Virus record (IMG/VR): IMGVR_UViG_3300026290_000001
DNA: 64,000 bases
Direction: 5' to 3' (one strand)
From: a virus
In this document: in pieces, positions 174 to 18,951 of the stretch
Layout of the letters: every line of letters begins with the position of its first letter
Numbering within the stretch: position 1 is the first letter of the stretch
Notes under the pieces: generated by a model
Database searches by the model: none
Told to the model about the DNA's origin: nothing
The model's input: the letters and a program-made list of their open reading frames with translations, nothing else
Made by a program: the position numbers and the translations under genes

Positions 174-1475
174 ATATTAGAAGTAATTTATAAAACAGAA
201 AAAGGTAGACTTGTTCATGGTGATAATATTGAAGCAATGAGAAAAATTAAAGAAAATTCAGTTGATAGTTGTATATCAGATTTTCCTTATGATTTATCAT
301 TTATGGGTAAGAAATGGGATACTACAGGAAATTTTTATGAGTGGTGTAAAGATCGAGCAGAACCATTATATAGAATAATTAAGCCGGGAGGTTATGTTTG
401 TATCTTTGGGCATCCTAAAACTAATCACAGAATGAAGTCAGCTTTTGAAGATGTAGGGTTTAATATAGTTGAAGAAATTGATTGGGTTTATGGAACTGGT
501 TTTCCTAAGAATCAAGATATAGGAAAATTGTTTGATAAGAAAGCAGGAGCAGAAAGAGAAATTGTTGGATATTTAGATAGAAATGATAGAAAATTACCTA
601 GTGGCGAAGGTGGTACTCATGGTACGGCACATCAAGATTATTGTAATAATGGTAGAGAAACTATAAATTTATCAATTACTGCACCAGCTACAAATCAAGC
701 AAAGAAATGGGATGGATGGAAAACATCAGGATTAAAACCAGCACATGAACCAATTACTGTATTTCAAAAACCATTGGAAGGTACTTATATAAATAATATA
801 AATACATATGGTGTTGGTGGAATGAATATTAATGCTTGTAGGATAGAACATAATGAACCTATTAAAACAACAAATAGAAAACCAAGAAGTGCTACATGGA
901 ATATGGACACTTGTGGATTTGATAGCACAAACAATACTGTTGCTAGTGCTGATCCAAATGGCAGATTCCCTGCTAATATGATATTTGATTCTTCTATGGG
1001 AGAAGTATTAGATAATCAGAGTGGAATTAGTAAGTCAACGGGTGGAAGTGGAGATAAGAGCAAAGGTGCTTTAGGGGATAGTGTTTATGGAAAATATAAA
1101 AATGAAGAATTATCAGCTAATGCAGGAGGATTAGGAGATTCAAGTGGTGCTAGTAGATATTTCTTAAAGATAGATGCAGAAGATTTTGTACCATTTTTAT
1201 ATTGTCCTAAAGCATCTAAAAAAGAAAAAGGCGAAGGGAATACTCATGTAACTGTTAAACCTAAAGAATTAATAAAATGGCTCATTAAATTAGTTACACC
1301 TATAAATGGAAAAACAATTGATATTACTGCTGGTTCTGGTACACATGGTTTGGCTTGTGAAGAACTTAATAAGAATGAAGGTTATAATCTAAGATGGATT
1401 GATATTGAATTATTAAATACAGAGAAAGAACCTTATTGTGAAATTGCAATGAATAGAATTAAAAATGTAATATAA
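174..1475 (+). CDS. DNA methyltransferase, beta-class amino-MTase (N6A/N4C), motif IV variant DFPY; probable ATA start
   Basis: Track ORF 237..1475; motif IV-like SVDSCISDFPYD near N-terminus, motif I-like DITAGSGT near C-terminus; N-terminal homology (ILEVIYK…GDNIEAM) runs upstream of ATG 237 to in-frame ATA 174, 10 nt after AAAGGAG. Confidence 0.7.
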   Translation: MLEVIYKTEKGRLVHGDNIEAMRKIKENSVDSCISDFPYDLSFMGKKWDTTGNFYEWCKDRAEPLYRIIKPGGYVCIFGHPKTNHRMKSAFEDVGFNIVEEIDWVYGTGFPKNQDIGKLFDKKAGAEREIVGYLDRNDRKLPSGEGGTHGTAHQDYCNNGRETINLSITAPATNQAKKWDGWKTSGLKPAHEPITVFQKPLEGTYINNINTYGVGGMNINACRIEHNEPIKTTNRKPRSATWNMDTCGFDSTNNTVASADPNGRFPANMIFDSSMGEVLDNQSGISKSTGGSGDKSKGALGDSVYGKYKNEELSANAGGLGDSSGASRYFLKIDAEDFVPFLYCPKASKKEKGEGNTHVTVKPKELIKWLIKLVTPINGKTIDITAGSGTHGLACEELNKNEGYNLRWIDIELLNTEKEPYCEIAMNRIKNVI

Positions 1476-1606
1476 AAATATACAGAAAAATACAAATATA
1501 CATACTATATATAGTGGCATTAAGCAATTCATACCACAATATATAGAAAAATATTTGAATAAAATTCGGGTTTTGTCACAAAATTATTAAATAGAAAGGA
1601 GAATAT

Positions 1607-1867
1607 ATGAAAAAAATAAAATATTACTGTGACAAATGTAATAAAGAAATCCAAAAGGAAGATATTATTAAAAAAGAAATACCTACTATAGATAAAATTG
1701 AAGCAAGAGGTGGTAAGGGTAATCCTACCCCTGTATTATTAGTATTTGAAAACTTAGTTATGGATGAATATGAGTTATGCAAAAATTGTGCAGATTCATA
1801 TGAAATATTACATAATTATTTCTTAACTTTACTTGCAAAACAATGGTCTAAAGTAAATACCAAATAA
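1607..1867 (+). CDS. small zinc-ribbon protein (hypothetical)
   Basis: RBS AAAGGAG then ATG; two CxxC pairs (CDKC…CKNC). Confidence 0.5.
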   Translation: MKKIKYYCDKCNKEIQKEDIIKKEIPTIDKIEARGGKGNPTPVLLVFENLVMDEYELCKNCADSYEILHNYFLTLLAKQWSKVNTK

Positions 1868-1905
1868 TGCTTTCATAAAAACTAAAAAATAAGGAGAATA
1901 AATAT

Positions 1906-2340
1906 ATGAAAACTTTACTATTAATCTTAGGAATTATAATTCTAATTTCAAAGAAAAAGGCTATTCCAAATATTTTTAAATCTAAAGAAGTTAAGAGAAA
2001 AATGGCAGAAAAAATGTTTGATGAATTACCAGATAAGGCAAAGGAGTTACATATTGATCTTACCACATTAAAAGGCTTGTTAATTATATTTTTAGGTCTA
2101 TTTTGCTTGTTGTATATAATTTTTTATTTATTATCAGCAATATTTATTAATACCTTCGTATTCACTGTAATATCAATTCTATTAATGTTTCTTACAGTTA
2201 AAACTTTAAGTAATTTTCTAAAAGGTTTTGATAATACCGGAAATATAAAAGTAGAAAGTGTTGCATTTAGTATATTTAATATTATTGTTGATTTAGGATA
2301 CATAGGATATGTGTTTTTCAATATATATAAGATGTGGTAA
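1906..2340 (+). CDS. hypothetical membrane protein
   Basis: RBS AAGGAG; several strongly hydrophobic segments. Confidence 0.45.
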   Translation: MKTLLLILGIIILISKKKAIPNIFKSKEVKRKMAEKMFDELPDKAKELHIDLTTLKGLLIIFLGLFCLLYIIFYLLSAIFINTFVFTVISILLMFLTVKTLSNFLKGFDNTGNIKVESVAFSIFNIIVDLGYIGYVFFNIYKMW

Positions 2341-2387
2341 AACATCATAGAATAACGGTTTGGTGCAAAGTGAGGTGAAATTATTAA

Positions 2388-2552
2388 ATGACTTTTGGAT
2401 TTACTTATTTTATCTCTAAAAGGGATAAAAGCGCAGAAAGAATAATTAATATTGAAGCAGAGTCGGAAGAACAGGCATTTGATAAATACATAAAGTTTTT
2501 AAGTGAGCATCATATGGTTATGGGTGAATCACTTGGAGAAAAGTTAAAATAA
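2388..2552 (+). CDS. small hypothetical protein (54 aa), absent from the ORF track
   Basis: ATG 2388 after GTGAGGTGA RBS-like sequence; fills the gap between flanking genes. Confidence 0.3.
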   Translation: MTFGFTYFISKRDKSAERIINIEAESEEQAFDKYIKFLSEHHMVMGESLGEKLK

Positions 2553-2607
2553 AAACAACACAAAAAATCAATTTGGTTCAAACTTTTACAAAAAACACAA
2601 TATAAAA

Positions 2608-3378
2608 ATGAAAGGAGAATTAGTATATAAGTTGCAATTATACTATAAAGATGAATACATAAGATTATTTCAAGGTGATTGTTTAGAAGTAATGGATAGG
2701 TTAATTGAGAAAGGTGTTAAATTTGATGCAATAATTACTGATCCTCCTTACGGGACTACAGCTTGTAAATGGGATAGTATCATACCATTTGATAGTATGT
2801 GGGAAAGATTAAATAAGTTAATAAAGGATAATAGTGCAATAGTTTTATTTGGTAGTGAACCATTTAGTAGTCATTTAAGAGTAAGTAATATTAAAAATTT
2901 TAAATATGATTGGATATGGAATAAAAAGAAGGGAGGAAGTCCTTTACTTTCTAAAATACAACCAATAAAAATATTTGAAATTATATCTGTTTTTGGGAAA
3001 GGGAAAATAAATTATTATCCAGTAATGGTTGATAGAGATAAACCTAAATCAAGGGGTAAGAATAGAGGAACTATTAGTGATACAACAAATAATTGTTTTT
3101 CAGAAGATAAGATTTATACGCAATATTATCCTAAAGCAATTATAGAATTTTCAAATGCTAGTCAAAAAAATAAATTTCACCCAACTCAAAAACCAGTGGA
3201 GCTAATGGAATATCTTATTAACACATATACACAAGAGAATGAAATTATATTAGATTTTACTTGCGGTTCTGGTACAACATTATTAGCATCAAGAAATCTT
3301 AAAAGAAAATGTATCGGTATTGAATTGGAAGAAAAATATTGTGAAATAACTAAACAAAGATTAGAAAAAGCAAGTTAA
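2608..3378 (+). CDS. DNA methyltransferase, beta-class (DPPY)
   Basis: Motif IV AIITDPPYG, motif I DFTCGSGTT, TQKP motif; ATG 2608 overlaps the AAAGGAGAA RBS, so in-frame TTG 2632 may be the true start. Confidence 0.8.
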   Translation: MKGELVYKLQLYYKDEYIRLFQGDCLEVMDRLIEKGVKFDAIITDPPYGTTACKWDSIIPFDSMWERLNKLIKDNSAIVLFGSEPFSSHLRVSNIKNFKYDWIWNKKKGGSPLLSKIQPIKIFEIISVFGKGKINYYPVMVDRDKPKSRGKNRGTISDTTNNCFSEDKIYTQYYPKAIIEFSNASQKNKFHPTQKPVELMEYLINTYTQENEIILDFTCGSGTTLLASRNLKRKCIGIELEEKYCEITKQRLEKAS

Positions 3379-3505: not shown

Positions 3506-4345
3506 TTGATAGAATTAAATAATTTTTATATAGGGGAATCTGTTAATTTTATGCGTAAAAATATTCCTGATAATTTTGTAGATTTAACAGTTACAAGTCC
3601 ACCTTATGATGATTTAAGAAAATATAATGGATTTATTTTTGATTATGAAACAATTTTTAAAGAACTTTTTAGAATAACTAAAAATGGTGGAATTGTTGTA
3701 TGGATAATAGGAGATAAGACAGAAAAAGGAACGGAAAGTCTAACAAGTTTTAAACATGCTTTAAGTGCTAAAAATATAGGATTTAATGTTCATGATACAA
3801 TGATATGGTTAAAACCTAATCCAACACCAACTGATCCTAAATGTTTAAGATATTATAATGCTTTTGAATACATGTTCGTTTTTTCTAAAGGAAAACCAAA
3901 AACATGTAATTATATAAAAGAAAAATCTAAAAATACAGGTAAAGAATTTGGTTCAGCTCCAATGAAAAGAGTAGATGGAACTAACAGAGATGACAGAACT
4001 GAAAAGTTAAAGGGTATAAAAATAAAAGACTATAAAATTAAAAGTAATGTATGGGAATGTGCTATAGGTTCAGGGGTATCTAAAGATAAAATTGCTTTTA
4101 AACATCCAGCAATTTTCCCTGAAAAATTAGTTGAAGATCACATAATTTCTTGGACTAATAAAAATGATATTGTACTAGACCCTATGTGTGGTTCGGGTAC
4201 AACGTGCAAAATGGCATGGTTAAACAAGCGTAATTTTATTGGAATTGATATGAGTGAAGAATACATAAATAACATTTGTATACCAAGATTAAATACATAT
4301 GGTTGGGAACAGAATAAAGAAAACGTATTTCAAGATTGCCTATAA
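3506..4345 (+). CDS. DNA methyltransferase, SPPY type (N4-cytosine-like or N6-adenine)
   Basis: TTG start 9 nt after GGAGG; TVTSPPYDDLRKYNG and DPMCGSGTT; paralog of 8521..9323. Confidence 0.8.
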   Translation: MIELNNFYIGESVNFMRKNIPDNFVDLTVTSPPYDDLRKYNGFIFDYETIFKELFRITKNGGIVVWIIGDKTEKGTESLTSFKHALSAKNIGFNVHDTMIWLKPNPTPTDPKCLRYYNAFEYMFVFSKGKPKTCNYIKEKSKNTGKEFGSAPMKRVDGTNRDDRTEKLKGIKIKDYKIKSNVWECAIGSGVSKDKIAFKHPAIFPEKLVEDHIISWTNKNDIVLDPMCGSGTTCKMAWLNKRNFIGIDMSEEYINNICIPRLNTYGWEQNKENVFQDCL

Positions 4346-4419
4346 ATTGGGCTTTATAATCTATAAAATCATTACCAAATTTGAGTTTGGTTCAAAGTTA
4401 TAGAAAGGAGAAATTATAA

Positions 4420-5256
4420 ATTATCAATACATATTATAAAAATAAATATGCAAGGATATATCAATGTGACAATTTAGAATTATTAAAACAATTACCAAAT
4501 GAATACATAGATTTAATTTATTGTGATATTTTATACAACACTGGTAAGAAATTTAAGGATTATGATGATCAATTAGGCACAACACAAGAAGCAATTAAAT
4601 GGTATAAACCAAGATTAATAGAAATGAAAAGAGTATTAAAGGAAACAGGATCAATTTATTTACATATGGATTTTAGATTAATACATTATTTAAAAGTAAA
4701 AATGGATGAAATATTTCAATTAAATAATTTTAGAAATGAGATTATATGGGATAAAGGATTTAGGGGTACGGAGCAAAAAGAGTTTTATCAACATTCGCAT
4801 GATTCAATATTATTTTATACAAAAACTAATAACTACATATGGAATAAAGTTTTTTGTGAATATGCTGATAAAAATATGAGTAGGTATAATAAAACTGATG
4901 AAGATGGAAATAAATATGCTTTAATTAAAAGAAAAAGAACAGACGGAAGTGTTTATTATGGCAAAACATATCCACAATCAGAAGGAAAGAAAGCAGACGA
5001 TGTATTTAGAGATATAAAAACTTTTTCATCAACAGCTAAAGAAAGAATTGGTTATGATACTCAAAAACCAAAGGCATTATTAGAACGTATTATTAAAGCA
5101 TCTTCTAATGAAGGAGATATAGTAGCAGACTTCTTTATGGGATCAGGCACTACTGGCGAAGTGGCATTAGAATTAGGTCGTAAATTTATTGGTTGTGATA
5201 TTGGGGAAAGGGCATGTGAGATTACTAAAAATAGATTAGATAAAATTATAATATAA
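4420..5256 (+). CDS. DNA methyltransferase homolog with degenerate motif IV (DILY); start uncertain (ATT 4420) or pseudogene
   Basis: Track ORF 4624..5256 has TQKP and DFFMGSGTT; upstream in-frame sequence ([31 protein letters not shown]) is clearly MTase N-terminus; no ATG/GTG/TTG between TAA 4417-4419 and 4624; ATT 4420 lies 9 nt after AAAGGAG. Confidence 0.55.
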
Positions 5257-6165: not shown

Positions 6166-7158
6166 TTGCTTGAATTGAATAAAATATATAATGAAGATTG
6201 TATAATCGGCATGAAAAAATTATTAAAAGATGGTTACAAAAATACTTTTGATTTTATAGAAATTGATCCACCTTATAATATAGGCAAAGATAAATGGGAT
6301 AAATTTAAAAACCATCAAACATATTTAAATTTTATTAATGAAGTTATAAGTTTATCTAATGAATTAATGAGCGATAATGGAACCTTATTTTTATGGCATA
6401 ATAATATCGAGGTGTTATCAGATTTTATTAAATTAATTAATACTACAGATTTAAAATTAATGCAATTATGTATATGGAATAAATATTATAAATATAATGA
6501 TGACGGTAATTTGAATAATCAATACGGATTTTTAAATGGATTTATTCAAAGTGATTTAAATAGGAATTATCAAAAAATGTGCGAATATATTTTATATTAC
6601 ACTAAACAAAACGAAGAATTAACTGAATATAATGAAAAAGACCCATTTAAATCACTAAAGGAATATTTTTTTAATGCCCAAAAATCTTCTGGTTTATCAA
6701 GAAATAAAATTAATCAAATATTGGGGCATAGACAATCTGAGCATACTTTTTATACTAAAACTCAATGGACTTTTCCAACAGAAGAAACATATTTAGAATT
6801 ACAAAATATAATGAATCTACCTATCCCTTATAATGATTTAAAAAATACATATGAAACAATGAGATATACATATAATTCAGAGAAAAACAATTATCGAAGT
6901 TGTATTTGGAATTACCCGATAAGTAAAGAATCAAAACACAAGACAGAGAAACCGTTACAATTGTATTATGATTTATATGAAATACATACAAAAAATAATA
7001 GTAAATGTTTATTCCCGTTTGTGGGTAGTGGTAATAATATTTTAAGTTTATTTAAAATAAATAATTTTGATGGAGGGAAACGAGAGTTTGTAGGTTTTGA
7101 AACTGACAAAACATGGTTTACTTATATAAATGAAAAAATAGATTTAAGAATCCCGTAA
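6166..7158 (+). CDS. DNA methyltransferase, beta-class (DPPY)
   Basis: TTG start after AGGAGG; FIEIDPPYNIGKDKWD and FPFVGSGNN. Confidence 0.8.
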   Translation: MLELNKIYNEDCIIGMKKLLKDGYKNTFDFIEIDPPYNIGKDKWDKFKNHQTYLNFINEVISLSNELMSDNGTLFLWHNNIEVLSDFIKLINTTDLKLMQLCIWNKYYKYNDDGNLNNQYGFLNGFIQSDLNRNYQKMCEYILYYTKQNEELTEYNEKDPFKSLKEYFFNAQKSSGLSRNKINQILGHRQSEHTFYTKTQWTFPTEETYLELQNIMNLPIPYNDLKNTYETMRYTYNSEKNNYRSCIWNYPISKESKHKTEKPLQLYYDLYEIHTKNNSKCLFPFVGSGNNILSLFKINNFDGGKREFVGFETDKTWFTYINEKIDLRIP

Positions 7159-7211
7159 TATTGGGATTCTTAAACCCAAAAATCAACACCAAACTTCGGT
7201 TTGGTTCAAAG
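7149..7211 (+). promoter_or_regulatory. copy of the repeated intergenic module (GC-stem hairpin, AAAATCA…AAAC box, TTTGGTTCAAA box)
   Basis: ATCCCGTAATATTGGGAT hairpin overlapping the upstream stop, then AAAAATCAACACCAAAC, then TTTGGTTCAAA ~10 nt before the RBS. Confidence 0.35.
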
Positions 7212-7232
7212 TTATAGGAAGGAGAAAATAAT

Positions 7233-7427
7233 ATGTTTGATTGTAGATTCGCTAAAAGTATTCTATTGGATAAAAATGAAGATGATACTTATCATATGAC
7301 AATAAAAGGAGATATTTATAATCTTGATCCTGAAGCGGAAATTGATTTTTCTAGAGTGAAAATTATTAATTTTGATATTGAGGCATTAGCAACAACTGGG
7401 ACAATATGTAAAATAAAAATAATATAA
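7233..7427 (+). CDS. hypothetical protein
   Basis: GGAAGGAGAA RBS then ATG. Confidence 0.4.
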   Translation: MFDCRFAKSILLDKNEDDTYHMTIKGDIYNLDPEAEIDFSRVKIINFDIEALATTGTICKIKII

Positions 7428-7720: not shown

Positions 7721-8461
7721 TTGTATAAATCGCCTCTTAGATATCCAGGAGGTAAAAGCAGGGCGATAAAAATAATTATCGAGTATTTTCCGAAAAGTAT
7801 AAAAGTTATGAGTTCTCATTTTGTAGGAGGAGGATCAATTGAACTTTATTTATCTGAAAATAATAAAATAATTGCGTATGATAATTTCGATCTGCTTATT
7901 AACTTTTGGAATCAATTAAAATATAAAAATAAAAATTTACATAATACAATATTAAAATATTACCCGTTAACAAAAGAACAATTTTTAGATATACAAAAAA
8001 ATATTTATAATTCAGATGATGAAGTTGAAATGGCCGCTAAATTTTATGTTTTAAATAGATGTAGTTTTTCAGGTAGTACATTAAGCGGTGGAATGTCACT
8101 AAATCATCCAAGATTTAATATTAATTTAATACATAAACTTCAGGAAGTAAATTTAAAAAATATTGAGTTTATTTGTATGGATTTCAAAGAATCAATATTA
8201 TTACATCAAAATAATTTTAAGTATTTAGACCCACCCTATTATATTGAAAATAATTTATATGGAGTAAAAGGAGGGTTACATAAAAATTTCGATCATATTG
8301 GTTTGAATGGTATTTTAAAACAATCATCTAATTGGGTATTAAGTTACAATGATTGTGAATACATAAGAAAACTTTATGAAGGATGCAAAATAATACAAGT
8401 TGATTGGAAATACGGAATGAGTAAAGATAAAAAATCTAATGAAATTCTTATAATAAATTAG
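7721..8461 (+). CDS. Dam-like N6-adenine DNA methyltransferase (D12 class)
   Basis: TTG start after AAAGGAG; N-terminal LRYPGGKSR and later FKYLDPPYY, the Dam-family motif order. Confidence 0.8.
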   Translation: MYKSPLRYPGGKSRAIKIIIEYFPKSIKVMSSHFVGGGSIELYLSENNKIIAYDNFDLLINFWNQLKYKNKNLHNTILKYYPLTKEQFLDIQKNIYNSDDEVEMAAKFYVLNRCSFSGSTLSGGMSLNHPRFNINLIHKLQEVNLKNIEFICMDFKESILLHQNNFKYLDPPYYIENNLYGVKGGLHKNFDHIGLNGILKQSSNWVLSYNDCEYIRKLYEGCKIIQVDWKYGMSKDKKSNEILIIN

Positions 8462-8520
8462 TAATATAAAAACAATATAAATATTTGGTTTGGTCATGAA
8501 ATATGAAAGGAGATTATATT

Positions 8521-9323
8521 TGATAGAATTAAATAATTTTTACATAGGCGAGTCTGTTAATTTTATGCGTTACAATATTCCAGACAACTACATTGATTTA
8601 ACTATTACTTCACCACCTTATGATGATTTAAGAAAATATAATGGATTTATATTTGATTATCAAAGTATGTTTAAGGAATTATATAGAGTTACTAAAGACG
8701 GTGGAATTGTAGTTTGGGTAGTAGGAGATAAAACTGAAAATGGTAGTGAAACATTAACAAGTTTTAAACATGCTTTATATGCTAAAGAAATCGGTTTTAA
8801 TGTTCACGATACACAAATTTATTATAAGAATAATCCTATACCAACAACAGGCAATAGATATCATCAACACTTTGAATATATGTTCGTATTTAGCAAGAAT
8901 AAACCAAGGGTATTTAATCCAATCAAGGAAGATTGTAAATATAGTGGTTTGGCTAATATGAAAAATAGAGGCAAGGATGGTTCATTAAATTATACTAAAA
9001 TTGAAAGAACTAAAGATAAAAAGGTAGGTAATGTTTTCTTTTATTCTATTGGAGGGGGTATTACTACTAAAGATAAAATTGCTTATAGTCATCCTGCGTT
9101 GTTTCCAGATAAATTAGCCGAAGATCAAATAATAACTTGGAGCAATAAAGAAGATATTATTTTTGACCCAATGTGCGGTAGTGGTACTACTTGTAAAATG
9201 GCATGGTTAAATAAAAGAAATTTTATTGGAATTGATATAAGTGAAGAATATATAAATGATATTTGTATACCTAGACTAAATATATATGGTTGGCAACAAA
9301 AGCAAAATATAAAAATATCATAA
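8521..9323 (+). CDS. DNA methyltransferase, SPPY type; paralog of 3506..4345
   Basis: Track ORF 8490..9323; the ATG lies upstream of the AAAGGAGA RBS, so TTG 8521 is the probable start; TITSPPYDDLRKYNG, DPMCGSGTTCKMAWLNKRNFIGID. Confidence 0.8.
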
Positions 9324-9428: not shown

Positions 9429-9884
9429 ATAGCGGATTTTGATAACAATAGATTTGCTTCAAAAAATCAAGAGTACGCAACACCTTGGGAATTATTTAAT
9501 AAGATAAATGAAGAATTTAATTTTACCTTAGATGTGTGTGCAGATGAAAATAATCATAAAGTTGATACATATTTTACGGAAGAACAAAATGCTCTTATCC
9601 AAAATTGGAAAGGAGTATGTTGGATGAATCCACCTTATAAGGATATGAAAAAATGGGTTATAAAAGCATACGAAGAATCAGTTAAAAATGATAGTATTGT
9701 GGTTTGTTTAATTCCAGCAAGAACTAATACCAAATGGTGGCATGAGTATTGCATGAAAGGTGAAATAAGATTTATTAAAGGTAGACCAAAATTTGAAGGA
9801 TGTATTCATGGTTTACCACAACCATTAGCAATTGTTGTTTTTGGAAAAGAATATAAAAATACATATGGTTCATTAGCAATTTAG
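9429..9884 (+). CDS. phage-type N6-adenine DNA methyltransferase (NPPY); probable ATA start
   Basis: Track ORF 9534..9884 (GTG) carries VCWMNPPYK; upstream in-frame ADFDNNRFASKNQEYATPWELFNKINEEFNFTLDVCAD is the family N-terminus; frame opens at 9411; ATA 9429 is 8 nt after AAGGAGG. Confidence 0.7.
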   Translation: MADFDNNRFASKNQEYATPWELFNKINEEFNFTLDVCADENNHKVDTYFTEEQNALIQNWKGVCWMNPPYKDMKKWVIKAYEESVKNDSIVVCLIPARTNTKWWHEYCMKGEIRFIKGRPKFEGCIHGLPQPLAIVVFGKEYKNTYGSLAI

Positions 9885-9955: not shown

Positions 9956-10014
9956 ACAAAAATCATTACCAAAATATCATTTTATATTAATTAGAAAGGA
10001 GAAACAAAATATAA

Positions 10015-10584
10015 TTGAGTAAAAAATATAACATTATATATGCTGACCCACCTTGGAAACCTACTGAGAGTGGTACAGGAGTTAGAGGTACGGCAGATTT
10101 AAAAAAACGATATCAAGGTGTAATGAGTATAGAAGAAATATGTGCTTTACCAGTAAAAGATATATGTGAAGATACATGCATACTGTTTTTATGGGTTACA
10201 TTTCCAAGATTACAAGAAGGAATGAAAACTATTGAAGCGTGGGGATTTCAATATTATGGGTTGGGATTTGATTGGATTAAAACTAATCTTAAAAGTGGAA
10301 CTCCATTTTGGGGAATGGGTTATTATACTAGACAAAATTCAGAAATATGCTTAATAGGAGTAAAAAAGGATAAAAATAAAAGAATTAAACCACAAGTTAA
10401 AAATATTTTATCTGTAGTTCATTCACCAAGAAGAGAACATAGTCAAAAACCTGATGAAATAAGAGATTACATAGTTAAAATTTGTGGTGATTTACCTAGA
10501 ATAGAATTATTTGCTAGACAAAAAGTTGAAGGTTGGGACGCATGGGGCAATGAAATTGAAAATGATATTATATTAAATACATAA
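10015..10584 (+). CDS. MT-A70 family N6-adenine DNA methyltransferase (DPPW)
   Basis: TTG start after AAAGGAGAA; IIYADPPWKP motif and family-typical downstream blocks. Confidence 0.75.
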   Translation: MSKKYNIIYADPPWKPTESGTGVRGTADLKKRYQGVMSIEEICALPVKDICEDTCILFLWVTFPRLQEGMKTIEAWGFQYYGLGFDWIKTNLKSGTPFWGMGYYTRQNSEICLIGVKKDKNKRIKPQVKNILSVVHSPRREHSQKPDEIRDYIVKICGDLPRIELFARQKVEGWDAWGNEIENDIILNT

Positions 10585-10667: not shown

Positions 10668-11438
10668 TTGATTGAATTGAATACTATTTATAATGAAGAT
10701 TGTATTAACTTTATGAAGAAACTACCTAATGAATCTATTGATTTAATAATTGCCGATCCACCTTATTTTGAAATATGCGGAGAGTTTGATTTTATATGGA
10801 AATCATTAGATGACTATTTAAATTGGTCTAAAGAATGGATTTTACAATGTTATAATATTTTAAAACCATCAGGCAGTATTTATATATGGGGTAAAATTGG
10901 ATTTGGTAAGGGGTATTCTTTATTTAAAATTGCAGATTGGATAGAGAATGAAAAACTGTTTATTATAAAAAATTGGATTACTCAACGTAATACAAGAGGG
11001 AGAGGAACAAAGAAAGGGTATATAGAGGCAAGAGAAGAACTTCTGTTTTGCGTAAAGTCTAATCAATGTACTTGGAATATTGCTTATACCGAAGAAAAAT
11101 CTAATAGAAAAGATTTAGGATTTGATGGCAAACCTAGAAAAAATGAGTTTAAAAGATGCTCTGATGTATGGATTGATATAGCTGAAGCAAGTCAATCAAG
11201 TAATGAAAGATTTAAAACATTTAATGGTAAAACTTTTCCAACAGTTAAAGCACAAAAATTATGTAATAGAATTATTTTGGCAAGTTCTAATGAAAATGAT
11301 TTAGTTTATATTCCCTTTGCTGGTTCTGGAAGTGAAATTGAATCTTGTATAAAAAATAAAAGAAATTGGATTGCGACAGAAATTAATAATCAATACATAA
11401 ATGAAATCATTGAACCTAGAATTAAACGTATAATATAA
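10668..11438 (+). CDS. DNA methyltransferase, beta-class (DPPY)
   Basis: TTG start after GGGAGG; LIIADPPYFE and IPFAGSGSE. Confidence 0.8.
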   Translation: MIELNTIYNEDCINFMKKLPNESIDLIIADPPYFEICGEFDFIWKSLDDYLNWSKEWILQCYNILKPSGSIYIWGKIGFGKGYSLFKIADWIENEKLFIIKNWITQRNTRGRGTKKGYIEAREELLFCVKSNQCTWNIAYTEEKSNRKDLGFDGKPRKNEFKRCSDVWIDIAEASQSSNERFKTFNGKTFPTVKAQKLCNRIILASSNENDLVYIPFAGSGSEIESCIKNKRNWIATEINNQYINEIIEPRIKRII

Positions 11439-11665
11439 AAAATAAAAATCATGATAAAATAAGTGTTTTATCATAATATTGCAGAAATCAGTATTTTGGT
11501 AGGTTATCAACAAATACACACAACAAAGCCCTAAATGGTGGGAATGAAAAGGTATTTTAAGTGGATTAACTCTACCAAAGTAAAAAATATTTGAACCAAA
11601 TGCGTCTTTTATTCAAAGTTTATTAAAAACATAAAATAAATATAAAGAAAAGAGGATTATATATA

Positions 11666-12370
11666 TTGAAACATATTTTAAGTTTTAGTGGCGGCAAAGA
11701 TTCAACCGCAATGTTACTCATAATGTTAGAGAGAGAATATCCAATAGATGAAATTATATTTTGCGATACTGGTAAAGAATTTCCTGCTTTATATAGACAT
11801 ATTGATAAAGTTGAAGAATACATAAACCAACCTATAACTAGGCTTAAAGGAGAAAAAACTTTTGATTATTGGATGTTCGAACATGAAAAAACCAAAGGTA
11901 AACATTTAGGTAAAAAGGGTTATGGTTGGGCAGACACCAGAGCAAGATGGTGTACAGCATATTTTAAGCGTGAAATTATGAATAAATACATAAAAGAAAA
12001 ATATAATAATGAATATAAAGAGTATGTAGGTATTGCTTATGATGAGTTTAAAAGATATGAGAAAACACAAAATGGTCATAAAAAATATCCTTTAATTGAA
12101 TGGAAAATAACTGAAGGTATGGCTCTAAAATATTGCTATGATAAAGGATTTGATTGGGAAGGAGTATACACACATTTTGAACGGGTATCTTGCTGGTGCT
12201 GCCCTTTAAAAAATCAGAGAGAATTATATATGCTTTATTCTTTCTATCCTGAATTATGGGCAGAACTCAAAGATATGGATAGTAGAGCATGGAACCAGTT
12301 TAAAAGAGATTACAGTGTTCAGGATTTAGAAGATAAATTTAGGGGATGGCAAGACATAATAAAAATATAA
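11666..12370 (+). CDS. PAPS reductase family protein (PP-loop, with C-terminal CC cluster)
   Basis: TTG start after AAGAGGA; PP-loop SFSGGKDS; C-terminal SCWCCP. Confidence 0.7.
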   Translation: MKHILSFSGGKDSTAMLLIMLEREYPIDEIIFCDTGKEFPALYRHIDKVEEYINQPITRLKGEKTFDYWMFEHEKTKGKHLGKKGYGWADTRARWCTAYFKREIMNKYIKEKYNNEYKEYVGIAYDEFKRYEKTQNGHKKYPLIEWKITEGMALKYCYDKGFDWEGVYTHFERVSCWCCPLKNQRELYMLYSFYPELWAELKDMDSRAWNQFKRDYSVQDLEDKFRGWQDIIKI

Positions 12371-12644: not shown

Positions 12645-12668
12645 TTTATAATTTTTGTGTTTTACGAA

Positions 12669-12728
12669 CCCCTAAATAATGGGGTTTGTGAAACCAAAAA
12701 TCATGATAAAACTCATCTTTTGTGTTGA
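12669..12728 (+). promoter_or_regulatory. copy of the repeated intergenic module
   Basis: CCCCTAAATAATGGGG hairpin, AAAAATCATGATAAAAC, TTTTGTGTTGA. Confidence 0.35.
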
Positions 12729-12764
12729 TATTAAAATTTAAATATAAGGAGGTAATATTATTAA

Positions 12765-13517
12765 TTGTTTGAATTAAATAAAATATATTGTGTTGATTGT
12801 TTAGAAGGGATTAAAAATATAGAAAGTGGCAGTATTGATATGGTATTTTTTGATCCTCCTTTCAATTTAAACAAAGATTATGGAATTAAAATTAATGATA
12901 ATTTAATAAAAGAAAAATATTTAAACTGGCAGTATGAAATATTAAAAGAATCTATTAGAGTGCTATGTGATAATGGGGCAATAATTTATCATACTATCCC
13001 AAAATGGGCATTTAAAATAGCTAATTATCTTGATGAACAAGGAATGGTTTTTCAAAATTGGATTTGTTGGAATGAATCAGGATCAACACCTACCCCTTCA
13101 AGATTATATCCTAAACATTATCCTATTCTTTGGTTTTCTAAGAATAAACTCAAAACTTTTAATAAACAATATATTCCCATAGAAAGATGCAGAAAGTGCA
13201 ATACTACTATAAAAGATTATGGTGGCAAATTTAAAGATTTAAAAGAAATAGATGGTGAAAAAGTAACTGTTTTAAGTGATGTATGGGACGATATACATAG
13301 AATAAGACATAATAAAAATAAAAATAGAAAATCAAATGAACTTCCCGAAATTTTAATGGAAAGAATAATTAACTTATATTCTAAAGAAAATGATATAATT
13401 TTAGACCCATTTTCAGGTAGTGGGACAACATGTAAAATAGCAAAGAAACTAAATAGACAATATATTGGATTTGAAATTAATCCTGAATACATAAAAATCT
13501 CAAAAGAACGTATTTAA
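12765..13517 (+). CDS. DNA methyltransferase, beta-class (DPPF)
   Basis: TTG start after AAGGAGG; VFFDPPFNLNKDYG and DPFSGSGTT. Confidence 0.8.
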   Translation: MFELNKIYCVDCLEGIKNIESGSIDMVFFDPPFNLNKDYGIKINDNLIKEKYLNWQYEILKESIRVLCDNGAIIYHTIPKWAFKIANYLDEQGMVFQNWICWNESGSTPTPSRLYPKHYPILWFSKNKLKTFNKQYIPIERCRKCNTTIKDYGGKFKDLKEIDGEKVTVLSDVWDDIHRIRHNKNKNRKSNELPEILMERIINLYSKENDIILDPFSGSGTTCKIAKKLNRQYIGFEINPEYIKISKERI

Positions 13518-13859: not shown

Positions 13860-13878
13860 TTTAATAAGAAAAATACAA

Positions 13879-13940
13879 ATCCCATTATATCGGACTTCAT
13901 TTTTATAAAAATCATGATAAAACTTGTCTTTTGTCATGAT
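13879..13940 (+). promoter_or_regulatory. copy of the repeated intergenic module
   Basis: ATCCCATTATATCGGA, AAAAATCATGATAAAAC, TTTTGTCATGA. Confidence 0.35.
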
Positions 13941-13972
13941 ATTAAAACAAAAATAAATATGGAGGTTAAAAT

Positions 13973-15394
13973 ATAATTAAATTAAATAAGTTTGCATTAG
14001 TACAATTAACTCCAAAAGATATGCGAAGCCAAGATAGTATAAATTTAGGATTAGAAATTATATCTGAAATAGTTAAAAAACAAGGTTGGCAATTAGATAC
14101 ATATAAATTCGGAGATAAAATTCAAGATGTTAATTCATATGATATTATAGGGTTTAGTTTATTCTATTTTACACAAATGTTAAATTTAGTTCCATTCCTA
14201 AAGAGTAATAATATTAAACCATTAAGTAGTAAAAGAAACAATCAACCACTATTATTAGCTGGCGGTCAAGGTATTCAAAATCCTAAACCAATTAGTAAAT
14301 TTATTGATGTATTTTGTATGGGTGAGGGTGAGGGGGTTTTGGAATATATCTTAGAAAATTATAAAAATAAAAATATTTTATCAAACCATAAGTCTTTGTA
14401 TATACCAAATATAAATGATAATTTTATATTCAACTCAATAAAAGATGTTGATTCTAAACCTATAATTTATGGTAAAAATAGCATGATAGAATTAACGAGG
14501 GGATGTAAAAATAGATGTAAGTTTTGTCAGTATGGATGGACAAATGGTAAATATCGAGAAAAAAACATCGAACTAGTAAAACAACAAATATTAGAGGTTA
14601 AAGATAAAGGCATTAAAAATATTAACTTGTTAAGTTGTAATTTGGGTGGTTATTCTAAGATAAATGAAGTTCTTGATTTTTGTATAGAAGAAAATATTAG
14701 ATTAATGAATACCGATATGAGAATTGACGAATATAGTGAAGAAATAGCTATAAAATTAGACCTACTAAAAGTGAGAACTCTAAAAGTTGGAGTAGAAAGC
14801 TTTTCTGATCAAACACGAATTGGTATTAATAAGAATATTTCAAAAATACAATTAGATACTTTTATTGACAGAGCTTTGAAGCATAATATATCAAATTTAC
14901 ATTTTTATTTAATATACGGACTTCCAAACGAAGAAAACTATAATGAATGGTTTAATTATATGGAATACATAAAAAATAGAATAAAATCTGTTGATAGAAA
15001 TATAAGAATTGAATTTAGTATTACTAATTTTGAACCAGCAATATATACACCCTTTGAAAAAAGTCCTTTAATTAATTTCCAAGACAAGCATAAATTTATG
15101 AGAGAATATTTAATAAAACAAGAAGAATTGGGTTATATAAAACAACCCGCACAAACAAAAGATTATAAAAATAGTCATGGAAGATTAGGCAGAAAAGAAC
15201 GAAGTTATAATATTGGAATGTGGTTACTACATGGGGACGAAACTGTAGGGGATGTGTTATATGAATTAAACATTAAAGGAATAGGTAGGAGTATAAATGA
15301 AAAGATTTATAATCAAATTTATAAAATATGCCAATCAAAAACTGATGTTTATCAAATAAGAAACATTCAAGATTTAAATGAAAATATATGGTGA
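13973..15394 (+). CDS. B12-binding-domain radical SAM protein; probable ATA start
   Basis: CX3CX2C radical SAM motif (GCKNRCKFCQ); upstream GEGEG-containing B12-binding-like segment; frame opens at 13970; ATA 13973 is 7 nt after GGAGG; track ATG 14021 has no RBS. Confidence 0.7.
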   Translation: MIKLNKFALVQLTPKDMRSQDSINLGLEIISEIVKKQGWQLDTYKFGDKIQDVNSYDIIGFSLFYFTQMLNLVPFLKSNNIKPLSSKRNNQPLLLAGGQGIQNPKPISKFIDVFCMGEGEGVLEYILENYKNKNILSNHKSLYIPNINDNFIFNSIKDVDSKPIIYGKNSMIELTRGCKNRCKFCQYGWTNGKYREKNIELVKQQILEVKDKGIKNINLLSCNLGGYSKINEVLDFCIEENIRLMNTDMRIDEYSEEIAIKLDLLKVRTLKVGVESFSDQTRIGINKNISKIQLDTFIDRALKHNISNLHFYLIYGLPNEENYNEWFNYMEYIKNRIKSVDRNIRIEFSITNFEPAIYTPFEKSPLINFQDKHKFMREYLIKQEELGYIKQPAQTKDYKNSHGRLGRKERSYNIGMWLLHGDETVGDVLYELNIKGIGRSINEKIYNQIYKICQSKTDVYQIRNIQDLNENIW

Positions 15395-15402
15395 TGTCCA
15401 TG

Positions 15403-15460
15403 CCTATAAATTGGGATTCTCAACACTCAAAAACATGATAAAACTAGTTTTTGGTCATGA
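15403..15460 (+). promoter_or_regulatory. copy of the repeated intergenic module
   Basis: CCTATAAATTGGGATTC, AAAAACATGATAAAAC, TTTTGGTCATGA. Confidence 0.35.
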
Positions 15461-15470
15461 AATTAAATGC

Positions 15471-15499
15471 TTGACAAATATTAATTAAAATAGTAATAT
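15471..15499 (+). promoter_or_regulatory. sigma-70/sigmaA-type promoter upstream of the ligase gene
   Basis: TTGACA (15471-15476), 17-nt spacer, TAATAT (15494-15499); RBS GGGAGGAAGG; ATG 15526. Confidence 0.5.
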
Positions 15500-15525: not shown

Positions 15526-17397
15526 ATGAGTGAAATAGAAAATCTCAAACAACAATTAGATTACCATGATGATTTGTATTACAATCAAGACGATCCTGAA
15601 TTATCTGATGTGGAATATGATGCTTTAAAACAAGAATATCTTAATTCAGTTAATCAACAAGAATACAACTATATACCTGGGCAAGCACAATTTAAAAAAT
15701 TCACACACACATTCCCTATTAAATCATTGGGGAAAATAAATACTATTGAACAAGCAAGAAAAGAAATTGAAAGGTTATATCCAGTAGTTATTGAACCTAA
15801 ATATGATGGATTAACCTTAGTGTTATATGGTGAAGGGAAAGTAGTAACTAGAGGTAGTGGTCAAATCGGAGAAGATGTTACTGCAAATGCTTCTAGATTT
15901 ATGCGTACTTATAATCCATATGGTTTACCTATTCGTGGCGAAGCAATTATGCCTATATCAGTGTTCCATGAAATTAACAAACAAAGGGATGTAGAAGGTA
16001 AGGAATTATTTAAAAATCCAAGAAATGCAATAGCAGGTATTCTTAGAAATAAAGATAATAGTAATATCCCTAAAGGGTTAAGATTTATTGCTTATGAAAT
16101 CGTAGGATCAGCAGAATCCCATATTCAACAATTATTAGAACTTAAAAAATACTATGATATACCTGAAGCAGATACTATTTGGAATTATAGTGAAATTGAT
16201 GATGCAGTAAAATTCATAGAAAACTTTGATCGTTCTAAATTAGATTATGAAATTGATGGATTAGTTATTAAATCTAATAAGACAAATGCATTAGATATTT
16301 TTGGTGAAACTGAACATCATCCGAACCATAGTGTTGCCTACAAGTTTCCTTCTCAGGGAGAATGGACTGTATTAAAATCTATAACTTGGCAAACTGGTCG
16401 CACGGGCAGAATTACCCCTGTGGCAGAATTGGAACCAGTAGATATTATGGGAAGTACAATCGAACGTGCTACATTGCATAATATAGGGTATATTAGTGGT
16501 TTAGATTTACAGCTATATGATAAGGTGTTTTTAGTGAAAAGTAATGATATTATTCCCGCTGTGATTAAATGTGAGCATACTAAAAATAGTAAACCTATTG
16601 AAATTATAAACAAGTGTCCTTCATGTGGAAGTGAATTAAAAATTATCAATGATCAATTATTCTGTATTAATGATGATTGTTTGGCAAAATTATTATATAG
16701 AACTTCTCATATGGTTAGTCGAGATGCCCTTAATATAGATGGTCTTAGTGAGCAAACCATTTTAAAAATGATTGAAGCAGGATATATTAATAAACCTTGG
16801 GATATATTTGATGTTACTGAAACAGAAATATTAAAATTAGATGGTTTTGCAAAGAAATCTGCCAAAAAAATATATGAAAATATTCAAAATGCAAGAAATT
16901 GTGATTTTGATAGAGCAATTTACGCTTGTGGAATTGAACTGATAGGCAGAAAGGTTAGTAAAGATATTGCAAAAGAATTTGAGACTATTGATAATTTGTT
17001 ATATTGTTTAAGACGTGATGATGCTAGAAGTATATTAGGTATGATTGATGGTATTGGTAATACCACTATAGATAGTTTATTGAATAACGTTAATATTTTA
17101 GAAAATATGGTGGATTATTTAAGTATTAGTAGTGTTGAAAAGAAAGAAACAACTTTTAAATCTCTTGAAAATATTACATTTGTAGTTACCGGAAATGTAG
17201 AAACATTTAAAAACCGTAAAGAGTTAGAAGAATTGATCACTTCTCTTGGTGGTAAGTTAAGTGGATCAGTTTCAAGTAAAACTAATTATTTAATCAACAA
17301 CGATATTACCTCCAATTCTGGTAAGAATAAAAAGGCAAACGAATTAGGGGTAGAAATTATTAGTGAAATACGATTTAATGAAATGATAGGTAGGTAA
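15526..17397 (+). CDS. ligA: NAD-dependent DNA ligase (LigA type)
   Basis: Adenylation motif KYDG (EPKYDGLTL); Cys4 zinc finger (CPSCGSEL…C…C); C-terminal BRCT-like region; 623 aa. Confidence 0.85.
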   Translation: MSEIENLKQQLDYHDDLYYNQDDPELSDVEYDALKQEYLNSVNQQEYNYIPGQAQFKKFTHTFPIKSLGKINTIEQARKEIERLYPVVIEPKYDGLTLVLYGEGKVVTRGSGQIGEDVTANASRFMRTYNPYGLPIRGEAIMPISVFHEINKQRDVEGKELFKNPRNAIAGILRNKDNSNIPKGLRFIAYEIVGSAESHIQQLLELKKYYDIPEADTIWNYSEIDDAVKFIENFDRSKLDYEIDGLVIKSNKTNALDIFGETEHHPNHSVAYKFPSQGEWTVLKSITWQTGRTGRITPVAELEPVDIMGSTIERATLHNIGYISGLDLQLYDKVFLVKSNDIIPAVIKCEHTKNSKPIEIINKCPSCGSELKIINDQLFCINDDCLAKLLYRTSHMVSRDALNIDGLSEQTILKMIEAGYINKPWDIFDVTETEILKLDGFAKKSAKKIYENIQNARNCDFDRAIYACGIELIGRKVSKDIAKEFETIDNLLYCLRRDDARSILGMIDGIGNTTIDSLLNNVNILENMVDYLSISSVEKKETTFKSLENITFVVTGNVETFKNRKELEELITSLGGKLSGSVSSKTNYLINNDITSNSGKNKKANELGVEIISEIRFNEMIGR

Positions 17398-17400
17398 AAT

Positions 17401-17640
17401 ATGAACGATAAAATCTATATTATACCTAGAGAAGATAAACCAATAAAATTCATTATTGAAGAATTACCATGTCCTATCTGTTCACAAATTGGATATGATT
17501 TTAGATGTGAACATGCCAAAAGTAGTTTTAAAGATTTAATATATACAATATCTTGTACTAATTTTAATCATTGTGAAAATGCAGAGAATATATCATTGAA
17601 ATTCAATGAGTTAATACAAGATGAGTTGTTAACCACTTGA
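17401..17640 (+). CDS. hypothetical Cys-rich protein
   Basis: ATG immediately after the ligase stop; CPICSQ…CEH…C. Confidence 0.45.
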   Translation: MNDKIYIIPREDKPIKFIIEELPCPICSQIGYDFRCEHAKSSFKDLIYTISCTNFNHCENAENISLKFNELIQDELLTT

Positions 17641-17950
17641 CAGATTAGTAAAATAAATATATAATAAAATTACAACAAAATATCAAAAATATCAATTTTA
17701 CAAATCCCAATATATAGCCATTCTTGAAGGTGAAAATCAACACCAAATCTGCGTTTTGTCACAACTTTTATGAATGCTAATATACAGGGCTTGAGAATTG
17801 CTATTTTAAGCGAAAATACGGTAAAATCAATGGTTTTAAGTAATTACTAAAATTAGCTTTACATAAAGTCCAATATATAGGCGTTTATAATTCTAAAAAT
17901 CGTGACAAAAGTGTCATTTTGTTTAGAAATTATAGAAAGGGGAATTAAAT

Positions 17951-18136
17951 ATGGATAAAAATTTTTTATTGCTTTGTTCATATGAGAATATGGAAGGAAT
18001 GCTAGAAAGAGATTTTGAATGGTATCAAACAGAAGAAAACATGAGAGAAAGCATTGAAGATAAAAAAGAATTTATAAAAGATTTTACGGTCAATAAAGCA
18101 ATAGAAATATTACAAGTTAGAAATATAGAAATATAA
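17951..18136 (+). CDS. hypothetical protein
   Basis: RBS AAAGGGGAA then ATG. Confidence 0.4.
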   Translation: MDKNFLLLCSYENMEGMLERDFEWYQTEENMRESIEDKKEFIKDFTVNKAIEILQVRNIEI

Positions 18137-18192
18137 TTTAAATAATAAACCTTAGTAATAAAAACATTAAAAGGAGATGAATTATACATAAT

Positions 18193-18951
18193 TTGATTGA
18201 ATTGAATAAAATTTATAATGAAGATTGTATAGGTGGAAGGGGTATGTGTTTAATCCCAAATGAATCAATCGATATGATTTTATGTGATCTTCCGTATGGA
18301 ACTACGATGGCGAAATGGGATAAGATTATCAACCAAGAAGAATTGTGGACGCAGTATAGAAGGATAATTAAACCCAGAGGGGCAATTGTACTAACTTCTA
18401 GTCAGCCATTTTCAAGTGCTTTAATATATAAAAACCTAGACATTTATAGGCATTCATGGGTTTGGGAAAAGAACAATTCTGCAGATTATGCCAATGCAAA
18501 TTGTAGACCAATGAAAATACATGAGGAAGTATTGGTATTTTCATTCGCACATGATGTTGCTCCTGCTAAAGTAAAGATGATTTATAATCCACAGGGGCTA
18601 ATACCAGTTAATAAGCCCAATCGGAGAGGTAGACATAGTGAAACAACAGGTCATTTTAGAGAGAATGAGTACATACAAAAATACACAAACTATCCTACTA
18701 CAATATTGAGGTTTGCTTCAGATAAAGATAAAATTCACTCTACACAAAAACCTGTGGCGTTGTTTGAATATCTTATAGAAACATATAGTAATGAAGGTGA
18801 TTTGGTTTTAGATAATTGTATAGGCTCAGGCACAACAGCGATTGCGTGTATAAACATCAAACGTAAATTTATAGGGTTTGAAAATGACAATACATATTTT
18901 GAGTTAGCAAACAAAAGAATAGAAGAACATAAATGTAAAATAAATATTTGA
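18193..18951 (+). CDS. DNA methyltransferase, beta-class, motif IV variant DLPY
   Basis: TTG start after AAAGGAGA; MILCDLPYGTT; TQKP; DNCIGSGTT. Confidence 0.75.
   Translation: MIELNKIYNEDCIGGRGMCLIPNESIDMILCDLPYGTTMAKWDKIINQEELWTQYRRIIKPRGAIVLTSSQPFSSALIYKNLDIYRHSWVWEKNNSADYANANCRPMKIHEEVLVFSFAHDVAPAKVKMIYNPQGLIPVNKPNRRGRHSETTGHFRENEYIQKYTNYPTTILRFASDKDKIHSTQKPVALFEYLIETYSNEGDLVLDNCIGSGTTAIACINIKRKFIGFENDNTYFELANKRIEEHKCKINI

Follow-up and report, generated by a model that had tools for sequence, protein, structure and literature searches.

An island of sixteen predicted orphan DNA methyltransferase genes in a low-GC phage and its turnover between relatives

A stretch of 64,000 nucleotides from the IMG/VR virus record IMGVR_UViG_3300026290_000001 opens with a dense array of DNA methyltransferase genes. 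The stretch as a whole, hereafter the window, is phage DNA of ~28% GC. Twelve separate methyltransferase genes (M1 to M12) lie on its + strand, and the array runs on for 4.2 kb upstream of the window, where four more (U1 to U4) are found. The total is 16 methyltransferases in ~23.2 kb; the genes sum to 12.6 kb, 54% of the island and ~9% of a genome of ~135 kb. By prediction all 16 are amino-methyltransferases (N6-adenine or N4-cytosine). No C5 (cytosine-5) methyltransferase is present among the 16; the relatives L004 and L019 have one. The twelve genes of the window are as follows.

M1, 174..1475, + strand: PF01555 (N6_N4) methyltransferase, 81 bits, 433 amino acids with a large insertion; motif IV DFPY, motif I AGSGTHG; ATA start
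M2, 2632..3378, + strand: PF01555 methyltransferase, 118 bits; motif IV DPPY; probable TTG start
M3, 3506..4345, + strand: PF01555 methyltransferase, 149 bits; motif IV SPPY; TTG start; paralogue of M7 and U3
M4, 4420..5256, + strand: PF01555 methyltransferase, 186 bits; motif IV DILY; ATT start
M5, 6166..7158, + strand: PF01555 methyltransferase, 73 bits, 330 amino acids; motif IV DPPY; TTG start
M6, 7721..8461, + strand: PF02086 (95 bits), D12-class (Dam family) N6-adenine methyltransferase; motif IV DPPY; TTG start
M7, 8520..9323, + strand: PF01555 methyltransferase, 135 bits; motif IV SPPY; start probably TTG 8520; paralogue of M3
M8, 9429..9884, + strand: PF05869 (112 bits), phage-type N6-adenine methyltransferase; motif IV NPPY; ATA start
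M9, 10015..10584, + strand: PF05063 (105 bits), MT-A70 family; motif IV DPPW; TTG start with ATA TAA ahead of it
M10, 10668..11438, + strand: PF01555 methyltransferase, 117 bits; motif IV DPPY; start TTG 10668 or in-frame ATA 10659
M11, 12765..13517, + strand: PF01555 methyltransferase, 182 bits; motif IV DPPF; TTG start
M12, 18193..18951, + strand: PF01555 methyltransferase, 103 bits; motif IV DLPY; start TTG 18193 or in-frame ATA 18184

All twelve open reading frames score above the Pfam gathering cut-offs, which are 26.7 bits for PF01555, 22 for PF02086, 28 for PF05869 and 23.9 for PF05063. The original prediction, made by reading the window by itself, had named twelve separate methyltransferase genes on a single strand and assigned them to families by motif IV. 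Both the count for the window and the assignments are borne out, with nine N6_N4 enzymes, one D12, one phage Dam and one MT-A70 protein; the check proposed there, whether most of the frames would fail methyltransferase profiles, found 12/12 passing the curated cut-offs. Each gene was also said to have its own ribosome-binding site, and a Shine-Dalgarno sequence does precede 12/12. The claim that needs correction is that the island starts at 174, since the four further genes upstream belong to the same phage.

The permuted motif order of beta-class enzymes, IV before I, is seen in 9/9 PF01555 translations, and motif IV is canonical in six of them. The variants in the remaining genes are conserved: DFPY occurs in five M1 homologues, DLPY in M12 homologues, and DILY in the M4 homologue of L019 (48% identical). 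Their retention across homologues at 36-70% identity indicates family traits rather than decay. M6 is, by its profile match, a member of the D12 family, for which GATC specificity is not established by equivalog profiles (TIGR00571 85 bits against a cut-off of 115; PRK10904 30 against 441). M8 likewise scores 83.5 bits on TIGR01712, where the cut-off is 97. The nearest solved structures to M9 are MT-A70 and METTL3 proteins, and the nearest to M11 is M.MboIIA (1e-30).

The four upstream genes are more varied in how they are recognised.

U1, upstream of the window: gamma-class methyltransferase with motifs YYVTP, DPCAGG and NPPF; phrog_799 'DNA methyltransferase', 1e-44
U2, upstream of the window: PF01555 methyltransferase, 132 bits
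U3, upstream of the window: PF01555 methyltransferase, 147 bits; paralogue of M3 and M7
U4, upstream of the window, at 8474 of locus L009: probable methyltransferase, ATA start; gamma-class motifs YYTPP, EPSAGAGVF and NPPYG

Neither U1 nor U4 has a match in the PDB. No further methyltransferase was found in the 11 kb before U1 or between 19 and 64 kb of the window.

The start codons of the island are unusual. None of the 12 methyltransferase genes of the window begins with ATG, compared with 44/62 of the other genes there that do (Fisher p = 4e-6). Nine begin with TTG (2632, 3506, 6166, 7721, 8520, 10015, 10668, 12765 and 18193), M1 and M8 with ATA and M4 with ATT. For example, homology of M1 reaches upstream of the first ATG (237), and its ATA at 174 has GAAAGGAG 10 nucleotides before it. 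The ATT of M4 at 4420 stands directly 3' of an in-frame TAA and 8 nucleotides after GAAAGGAG; extending the gene to it from the mechanical start at 4624 raises the PF01555 score from 159 bits (profile positions 39-220) to 186 bits (1-220). In M8 the mechanical start at 9534 is likewise truncated, and extension to ATA 9429, 8 nucleotides after AAGGAGG, raises PF05869 from 83 to 112 bits. TTG 2632 is the probable start of M2, with ATG 2608 falling inside the Shine-Dalgarno sequence. Public gene callers truncate or miscall M1, M4, M8 and M12 in public assemblies.

Spacers between the Shine-Dalgarno sequence and the start are 7-16 nucleotides in the nine TTG genes, with a median of 13 against 8 in other genes (p = 0.004). 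ATA-TAA stands just ahead of the TTG in M3, M5 and M9, and an in-frame ATA at normal spacing is present in M10 and M12. The habit extends to other phages, where M1-like and M12-like genes also begin at TTG or ATA. Weak starts, often combined with long spacers, suggest that translation is deliberately weak and that expression is held at a low, catalytic level.

The methyltransferases appear to be solitary. The open reading frames interspersed among them encode 54-144 amino acids, and profile searches, by which restriction enzymes are hard to detect, found no nuclease, HsdS or HsdR domain in those that adjoin methyltransferases; a complete restriction-modification system is thus not what these genes look like. 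Homologues of U3 were seen in two other contexts, a bacterial chromosome, where the gene lies by a transposase, and a phage, with a restriction partner in neither.

Most pairs of the island's methyltransferases are 21-47% identical in local alignments. The one close group is M3, M7 and U3 (55-68% identity; M3 and M7 share 65% of their amino acids). At the DNA level both ends of these three genes are 73-92% identical, and the middle is 40-60% identical and rich in insertions and deletions. In beta-class enzymes the target-recognition domain lies in that middle region. Its divergence speaks for diversification, not decay, and several distinct specificities are likely among the methyltransferases as judged from their sequences. 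U3 joins an M7-type 3' end to an N-terminal part for which homologues with 91% identity exist elsewhere. M5, M10, M11 and M12 share 5' DNA at 77-81% identity; this was not counted as a trace of recombination, as a conserved N-terminal peptide together with strong codon bias may suffice to produce it.

Such a number of methyltransferases is rare in phages. The original prediction had called the island far beyond the one to three orphan enzymes typical of them, and three kinds of count back this. A tblastn search with M11 against 50,697 phage records gave 1,131 places in 1,012 records, ~1.1 per record. Among 239 other IMG/VR phage loci there were 0-5 methyltransferases per locus of up to ~20 kb; the locus described here has 13 in 16 kb. 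Of 79 phage loci that carry RtcB (1.4 Mb), scanned with profiles built from the island, 50 had no methyltransferase, 27 had one and 2 had two. Where an M3-like gene was the centre (n=79), 1, 2, 3 or 4 occurred in 44, 22, 10 and 3 cases, and loci centred on an M12-like gene (n=80) had 1 to 4. A nine-sequence N6_N4 alignment was too diverse for these scans and subfamily alignments were used; because locally built profiles miss some families, the background counts are lower bounds. The richest other locus, L011, has five N6_N4 genes in 8.6 kb. In a published survey of 8,848 gut phages, a methyltransferase was found in 34%, and 72% of the carriers had just one (PMC10477858). Literature searches for reports of phages with 7-12 or 'multiple' DNA methyltransferases brought up no example in a phage. 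The chloroviruses are the sole viral precedent that they found; in NY-2A, 18 DNA methyltransferases are predicted across 369 kb, and roughly one in four is paired with an endonuclease (PMC7019647).

The five genes of L011 (4892-13477 of that locus, from IMGVR_UViG_3300042922_000836) form a stretch cut by the end of a 137-kb contig, and this may be a second methyltransferase-rich island.

The island does not owe its size to assembly. A metagenomic source makes a chimera or a collapsed mix of strains, inflating the number of genes, a natural suspicion; the same gene order was recovered in four independent assemblies at 99.99-100% identity (JGI contigs of 99.6 and 64.9 kb, ENA contigs of 138.1 and 135.2 kb), which effectively refutes it and leaves it a negligible probability. 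The IMG/VR contig 3300009671_000358, which carries the window, and 3300009647_000134, which extends 15.6 kb further upstream, are 100% identical over the 21.4-kb stretch compared. In the two ENA assemblies (ERZ27268616 and ERZ764778), with contigs of 138,134 bp and 135,245 bp, the island is present at 100% and 99.99% identity. The last 51 nucleotides of the shorter one (ERZ764778 NODE_53) equal its first 51, with the join lying within the PAPS-reductase-like gene. This overlap closes the assembly into a circular genome of ~135.2 kb, which exceeds the 99.6-kb contig in IMG/VR.

A set of methyltransferases this large is not a fixed property of the lineage. In locus L332 the M11 protein is identical, and from the RNA ligase gene to M11 there are only a D12 gene, an M2-like gene and M11 itself, three methyltransferases against 15 here. 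L017 and L018 have a replication module 92-96% identical to that of the window and differ in the slot between the DNA ligase gene and gene 19213. Where M12 stands in the window, L018 has a 311-amino-acid gene that is not a methyltransferase and has no assigned function, and in L017 another N6_N4 methyltransferase gene is represented by its 3' end, together with an extra cassette of 103 amino acids. In L019, whose backbone is 75% identical, just a C5 gene and an M4-like gene lie upstream of the ligase. Base composition varies within the island as well. The GC content of third codon positions (GC3) is 0.25-0.35 in U2, U3 and M12 (0.25 in M12) and 0.12-0.17 in the other thirteen, and the higher values point to recent acquisition. 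Judged by these comparisons, the methyltransferase set is turning over fast between relatives.

Most of the genes are set apart by a repeated intergenic module of 65-95 nucleotides, placed between cassettes and made up of hairpin 1 (AAATCCC..GGGATTT, often followed by T's), palindrome 2 (ATCATGAyAAAA-N5-6-TTTTGTCATGAT) and the ribosome-binding site. Copies were found with an nhmmer profile at E values of 5e-7 to 8e-19. They are listed here with the two sigma-70-type promoters of the region.

4328..4420, + strand: copy of the module (nhmmer profile; repeat families D2, D4 and D12)
7142-7236, 9326-9417, 9928-10010, 11438-11503, 12660-12750: further full or near-full copies
13872-13966, 15392-15484, 17696-17790, 17859-17954, 19054-19135: further full or near-full copies
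43787-43858, 46370-46443: copies outside the island
L009 5263-5330 (- strand), L009 6386-6452 (- strand), L009 9300-9376: copies upstream of the window
17637..17665, + strand: sigma-70-type consensus promoter with 12/12 matches, just after the stop of the open reading frame 17401-17640 and upstream of two modules and M12
18948-18976: second sigma-70-type promoter with 12/12 matches, just after the stop of M12

Of the window's 13 full copies, eleven fall within 4.3-19.2 kb, a segment of 15 kb out of 64 (binomial p = 6e-6); the stretch upstream has another three. In a locus set of 3.4 Mb the module was seen only in copies of this phage and its close relatives, so it is specific to the lineage. 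Most copies fold into a pair of hairpins (z-scores between -2.5 and -3.8 in 8/11), and the two-hairpin pairing reaches 73% against 35-47% in slid controls. Rfam gave no credible match to it and RNAalifold no consensus structure. The sigma-70 promoters lie upstream of modules, which are thus probably transcribed. The promoter at 18948 is conserved in L017 (~185-213), where it lies behind a different methyltransferase gene.

In two cases the modules also coincide with places where relatives differ. Alignment with L332 is mosaic: 84.6% identity gives way to 98.9% right at the 5' edge of the module copy 12660-12750 (from window position 12661). The extra cassette of L017 is bounded by hairpin-1 elements, and the window keeps a hybrid hairpin there followed by a full module. 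A Xer-like tyrosine recombinase is encoded at 46457..47461 on the - strand (NF040815 229.7 bits against a cut-off of 220; PF00589), with the module copy 46370-46443 directly downstream of its gene. Its presence may mean that the phage is temperate or plasmid-like, or that the enzyme acts on the modules; any tie between recombinase and island is speculative. An integron was considered and set aside, as its defining features, an adjacent integrase and an attC R''/R' consensus, are lacking: the recombinase lies 27 kb off, TIGR02249 gives 96 bits against a cut-off of 265, and the GTTRRRY/RYYYAAC ends are absent from the modules.

The island lies in the early region of the phage genome. Beyond it the window has a simple layout.

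1 to 43.4 kb, + strand: methyltransferase region, then a replication module
replication module, + strand: DnaB-like helicase, RecJ-like exonuclease, Pol III alpha-type polymerase, exonuclease V/Dda-like helicase and anaerobic ribonucleotide reductase
43.8 to 64 kb, - strand: lysis and tail genes (Amidase_2 and SLH endolysin, tape-measure protein, tail proteins)

The carrier is best read as a tailed phage of ~135 kb with a low-GC Bacillota (Gram-positive) host. Among cultured phages, the closest are large siphoviruses that infect Bacillota, with proteins 30-48% identical; no similarity to phage records was found at the DNA level. The endolysin (44237-44953, - strand) joins an Amidase_2 domain to an S-layer-homology (SLH) domain, which suggests that the host is a member of the Bacillota whose S-layer is anchored through SLH domains. 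Two candidates for a described relative were considered. Clostridium phage Amboise, the nearest cultured relative by its polymerase (48% identity), has a single C5 methyltransferase and does not explain the island. A Fusobacterium FNU1-like phage is ruled out, FNU1 being listed with about three methylases and DNA similarity to it not being found. Within the tail and structural block lies an HNH endonuclease gene of 430 amino acids (54449-55741, - strand), possibly a homing element.

Several neighbours of the methyltransferases are of interest in their own right.

11666..12370, + strand: PAPS-reductase-like ATP pyrophosphatase (PF01507 44 bits; phrog_424 1e-49)
14021..15394, + strand: radical SAM protein, B12-binding-class-like (PF19864 and PF04055; TIGR03960 below its cut-off)
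15526..17397, + strand: NAD-dependent DNA ligase (PF01653, PF03120, BRCT)
L009 61-1080 (full gene L026 5626-6855): RtcB, just before the island
L009 4182-5264: RNA ligase with a tRNA-binding-like OB domain, just before the island
upstream of the window: DUF5662 protein

RtcB and the RNA ligase likely form a tRNA-repair pair that counters anticodon nucleases; the region as a whole would then be a block of counter-defence genes. The radical SAM protein is a candidate for an undescribed step of DNA or nucleotide modification. A homologue with 73% identity, on an otherwise unrelated phage contig (L004 10001-11377), lies between genes for a SAM synthetase, a C5 methyltransferase, an N6_N4 methyltransferase and Mom. 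The PAPS-reductase-like gene, which is weakly DndC-like, was seen beside phage N6_N4 methyltransferases in three contexts: the window, L256 10542-11342 and L332 9157-9882.

The island is probably an arsenal of self-methylation against restriction, assembled and re-specified by turnover of cassettes. Many solitary methyltransferases would pre-emptively methylate the replicating phage DNA at many short motifs, and the progeny DNA would thereby withstand a broad variety of Type I-III restriction systems encountered from one host strain to another. The genes would behave as cassettes, each with its own ribosome-binding site and most separated by the two-hairpin module. Recombination at or near modules, combined with divergence of the middle region in duplicates, would add, remove and re-specify methyltransferases. 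Broad-spectrum self-methylation had been put forward in the original prediction as one of two purposes for the island; it fits the orphan status and diversity of the genes, their divergent target-recognition regions, the co-located counter-defence and repair genes and the fast turnover, and as an account of function it is still an inference from the gene content.

A number of observations weigh against this account or narrow it. Prediction of target motifs failed, every NCBIfam equivalog being far below its cut-off, and M.MboIIA and M.RsrI, the closest enzymes of solved structure, are only remotely similar. U4 has no Pfam match at E<=0.001 and is assigned from motifs alone, an RNA substrate is conceivable for the MT-A70 protein M9, and the weak starts and long spacers could mean that some genes are barely expressed. 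The count of 16 covers all but ~55 kb of the ~135-kb genome. Short palindromes are still avoided in the window as a whole (observed relative to Markov expectation: GATC 0.52, TGCA 0.67, AGCT 0.43, GGCC 0.23, CCGG 0.27, GAATTC 0.39), and methylation is therefore not the sole answer to restriction. Heavy methylation should, moreover, sensitise DNA to methyl-dependent (Type IV) nucleases. As for the modules, their pairing is no better than in column shuffles and covariation is unsupported; their tie to recombination consists of one sharp identity step (L332) and one hairpin-bounded insertion/deletion (L017), with few relatives covering the island. The search for a host with the endolysin gave only amidase-domain matches in Paenibacillus, Brevibacillus and Heliobacterium at 33-59% identity, the best being Paenibacillus at 55-59%.

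Other explanations are all weaker than anti-restriction self-methylation. Most of the 16 genes might be redundant or silent paralogues, a few of them active and the rest drifting duplicates or hitch-hiking cargo of a hyperplastic region. Weak start codons with long spacers throughout, a non-canonical motif IV in three genes, and a turnover so high that single genes must be dispensable all suit such an origin. Drifting genes would not be expected to look as these do, with 16/16 frames intact and carrying motifs I and IV, odd motif IV variants kept in distant homologues, differences between paralogues concentrated in the target-recognition region, and an island identical across four assemblies; GC3 is fully ameliorated in most of the genes, so they have long been retained. 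Silent paralogy is accordingly unlikely as the general explanation. A more elaborate proposal is that the modules are recombination sites of a dedicated cassette-exchange platform, perhaps served by the Xer-like enzyme, which would capture and reshuffle anti-restriction genes on ecological time-scales in the manner of integrons or pdif modules, the non-AUG starts keeping captured enzymes at a low dose. The hairpin centres vary between copies, which argues against site-specific exchange; exchange of that kind at the modules is a minority possibility, and the platform as a whole is rather doubtful.

A marking of self and non-self like that of chloroviruses, in which the phage's own nucleases degrade unmethylated DNA of the host or of competitors, is suggested by the 18 methyltransferases of NY-2A and the partner endonucleases of about a quarter of them (PMC7019647). 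The present phage has the HNH endonuclease at 54449-55741, and the ~55 kb outside the scans might hold others. Partner genes in chloroviruses are always adjacent (PMC7019647), and here no nuclease domain adjoins any of the 16, the interspersed open reading frames being too small for typical restriction enzymes; self-marking is quite improbable on these grounds. The second purpose offered in the original prediction, an elaborate epigenetic programme, found support in nothing that was tested. Marks of this sort would regulate transcription, replication or packaging of the phage, or expression of the host if the phage is temperate, and the tyrosine recombinase does make lysogeny or a plasmid state possible. 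In some phages, among them P1 and Mu, packaging and transcription are under the control of Dam-type enzymes. A regulatory set should nonetheless be conserved, and content differs here between relatives whose flanks are 92-99% identical; nor is any precedent known for sixteen regulators that share a single chemistry. An epigenetic role for the set is very improbable.

The strategy itself is known. Orphan methyltransferases of phages, such as Dam of T4 and P1 and the N6_N4 enzymes of lactococcal and staphylococcal phages, belong to the same families (PF01555, PF02086, PF05869), lack a restriction partner, lie in the early or replication region and are presumed to serve self-methylation. The island differs from them in having 16 genes in 23 kb, a layout of cassettes and modules, and uniform non-ATG starts. 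The Bacillus phages SPbeta, phi3T and rho11s have multispecific C5 methyltransferases, in which several recognition domains are carried by one enzyme and domain swaps give new specificities. Broad self-methylation by a phage of Bacillota is common to both cases; here many separate amino-methyltransferase genes are used and no C5 enzyme. The chlorovirus NY-2A resembles the island in its double-digit number of sequence-specific DNA methyltransferases, many of them orphans. It differs as an algal virus with enzymes for both 5-methylcytosine and N6-methyladenine, about a quarter of them paired with endonucleases that degrade host DNA (PMC7019647); in the phage the genes form one contiguous island, and neither a C5 enzyme nor a nuclease partner was found.

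The modular layout has parallels of its own. Arrays of integron cassettes and the Xer-dependent pdif modules of Acinetobacter plasmids consist of cassettes separated by imperfect palindromes. The co-oriented array, the imperfect palindromes and a Xer-like recombinase in the same genome are points of likeness; the 27 kb to the recombinase, the absence of an attC R'/R'' consensus and the variable hairpin centres are points of difference. In hyperplastic regions of T4-type phages, PeSL promoter/stem-loop cassettes flank small variable genes, and the differences between relatives map to these motifs (PMC2839356, PMC4122927). A repeated intergenic stem-loop motif that flanks variable open reading frames and is enriched in the variable region is shared with the island. 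The lineage and the motif sequence are unrelated, the sigma-70 promoters of the island lie outside the modules, and the cargo is mostly of one functional class. What is extreme here is the scale (16 genes), the modular cassettes with turnover between near-identical phages, and the uniform non-ATG initiation.

The modules and the starts at TTG, ATA or ATT offer testable clues to the construction and dosing of hyperplastic phage regions, and genes with such starts are truncated by standard gene callers. Compact N6-adenine and N4-cytosine methyltransferases from low-GC Bacillota may be of use for pre-methylating DNA that is to enter intractable anaerobes, and as new specificities for the catalogues. 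Relatives with three or fewer methyltransferases in the same place form a natural series from which to gauge how fast a phage keeps up with the restriction systems that its hosts carry. Provided that the 16 enzymes are active on distinct targets, the island would be a limit case of self-methylation, with ~9% of a genome spent on escape from restriction.

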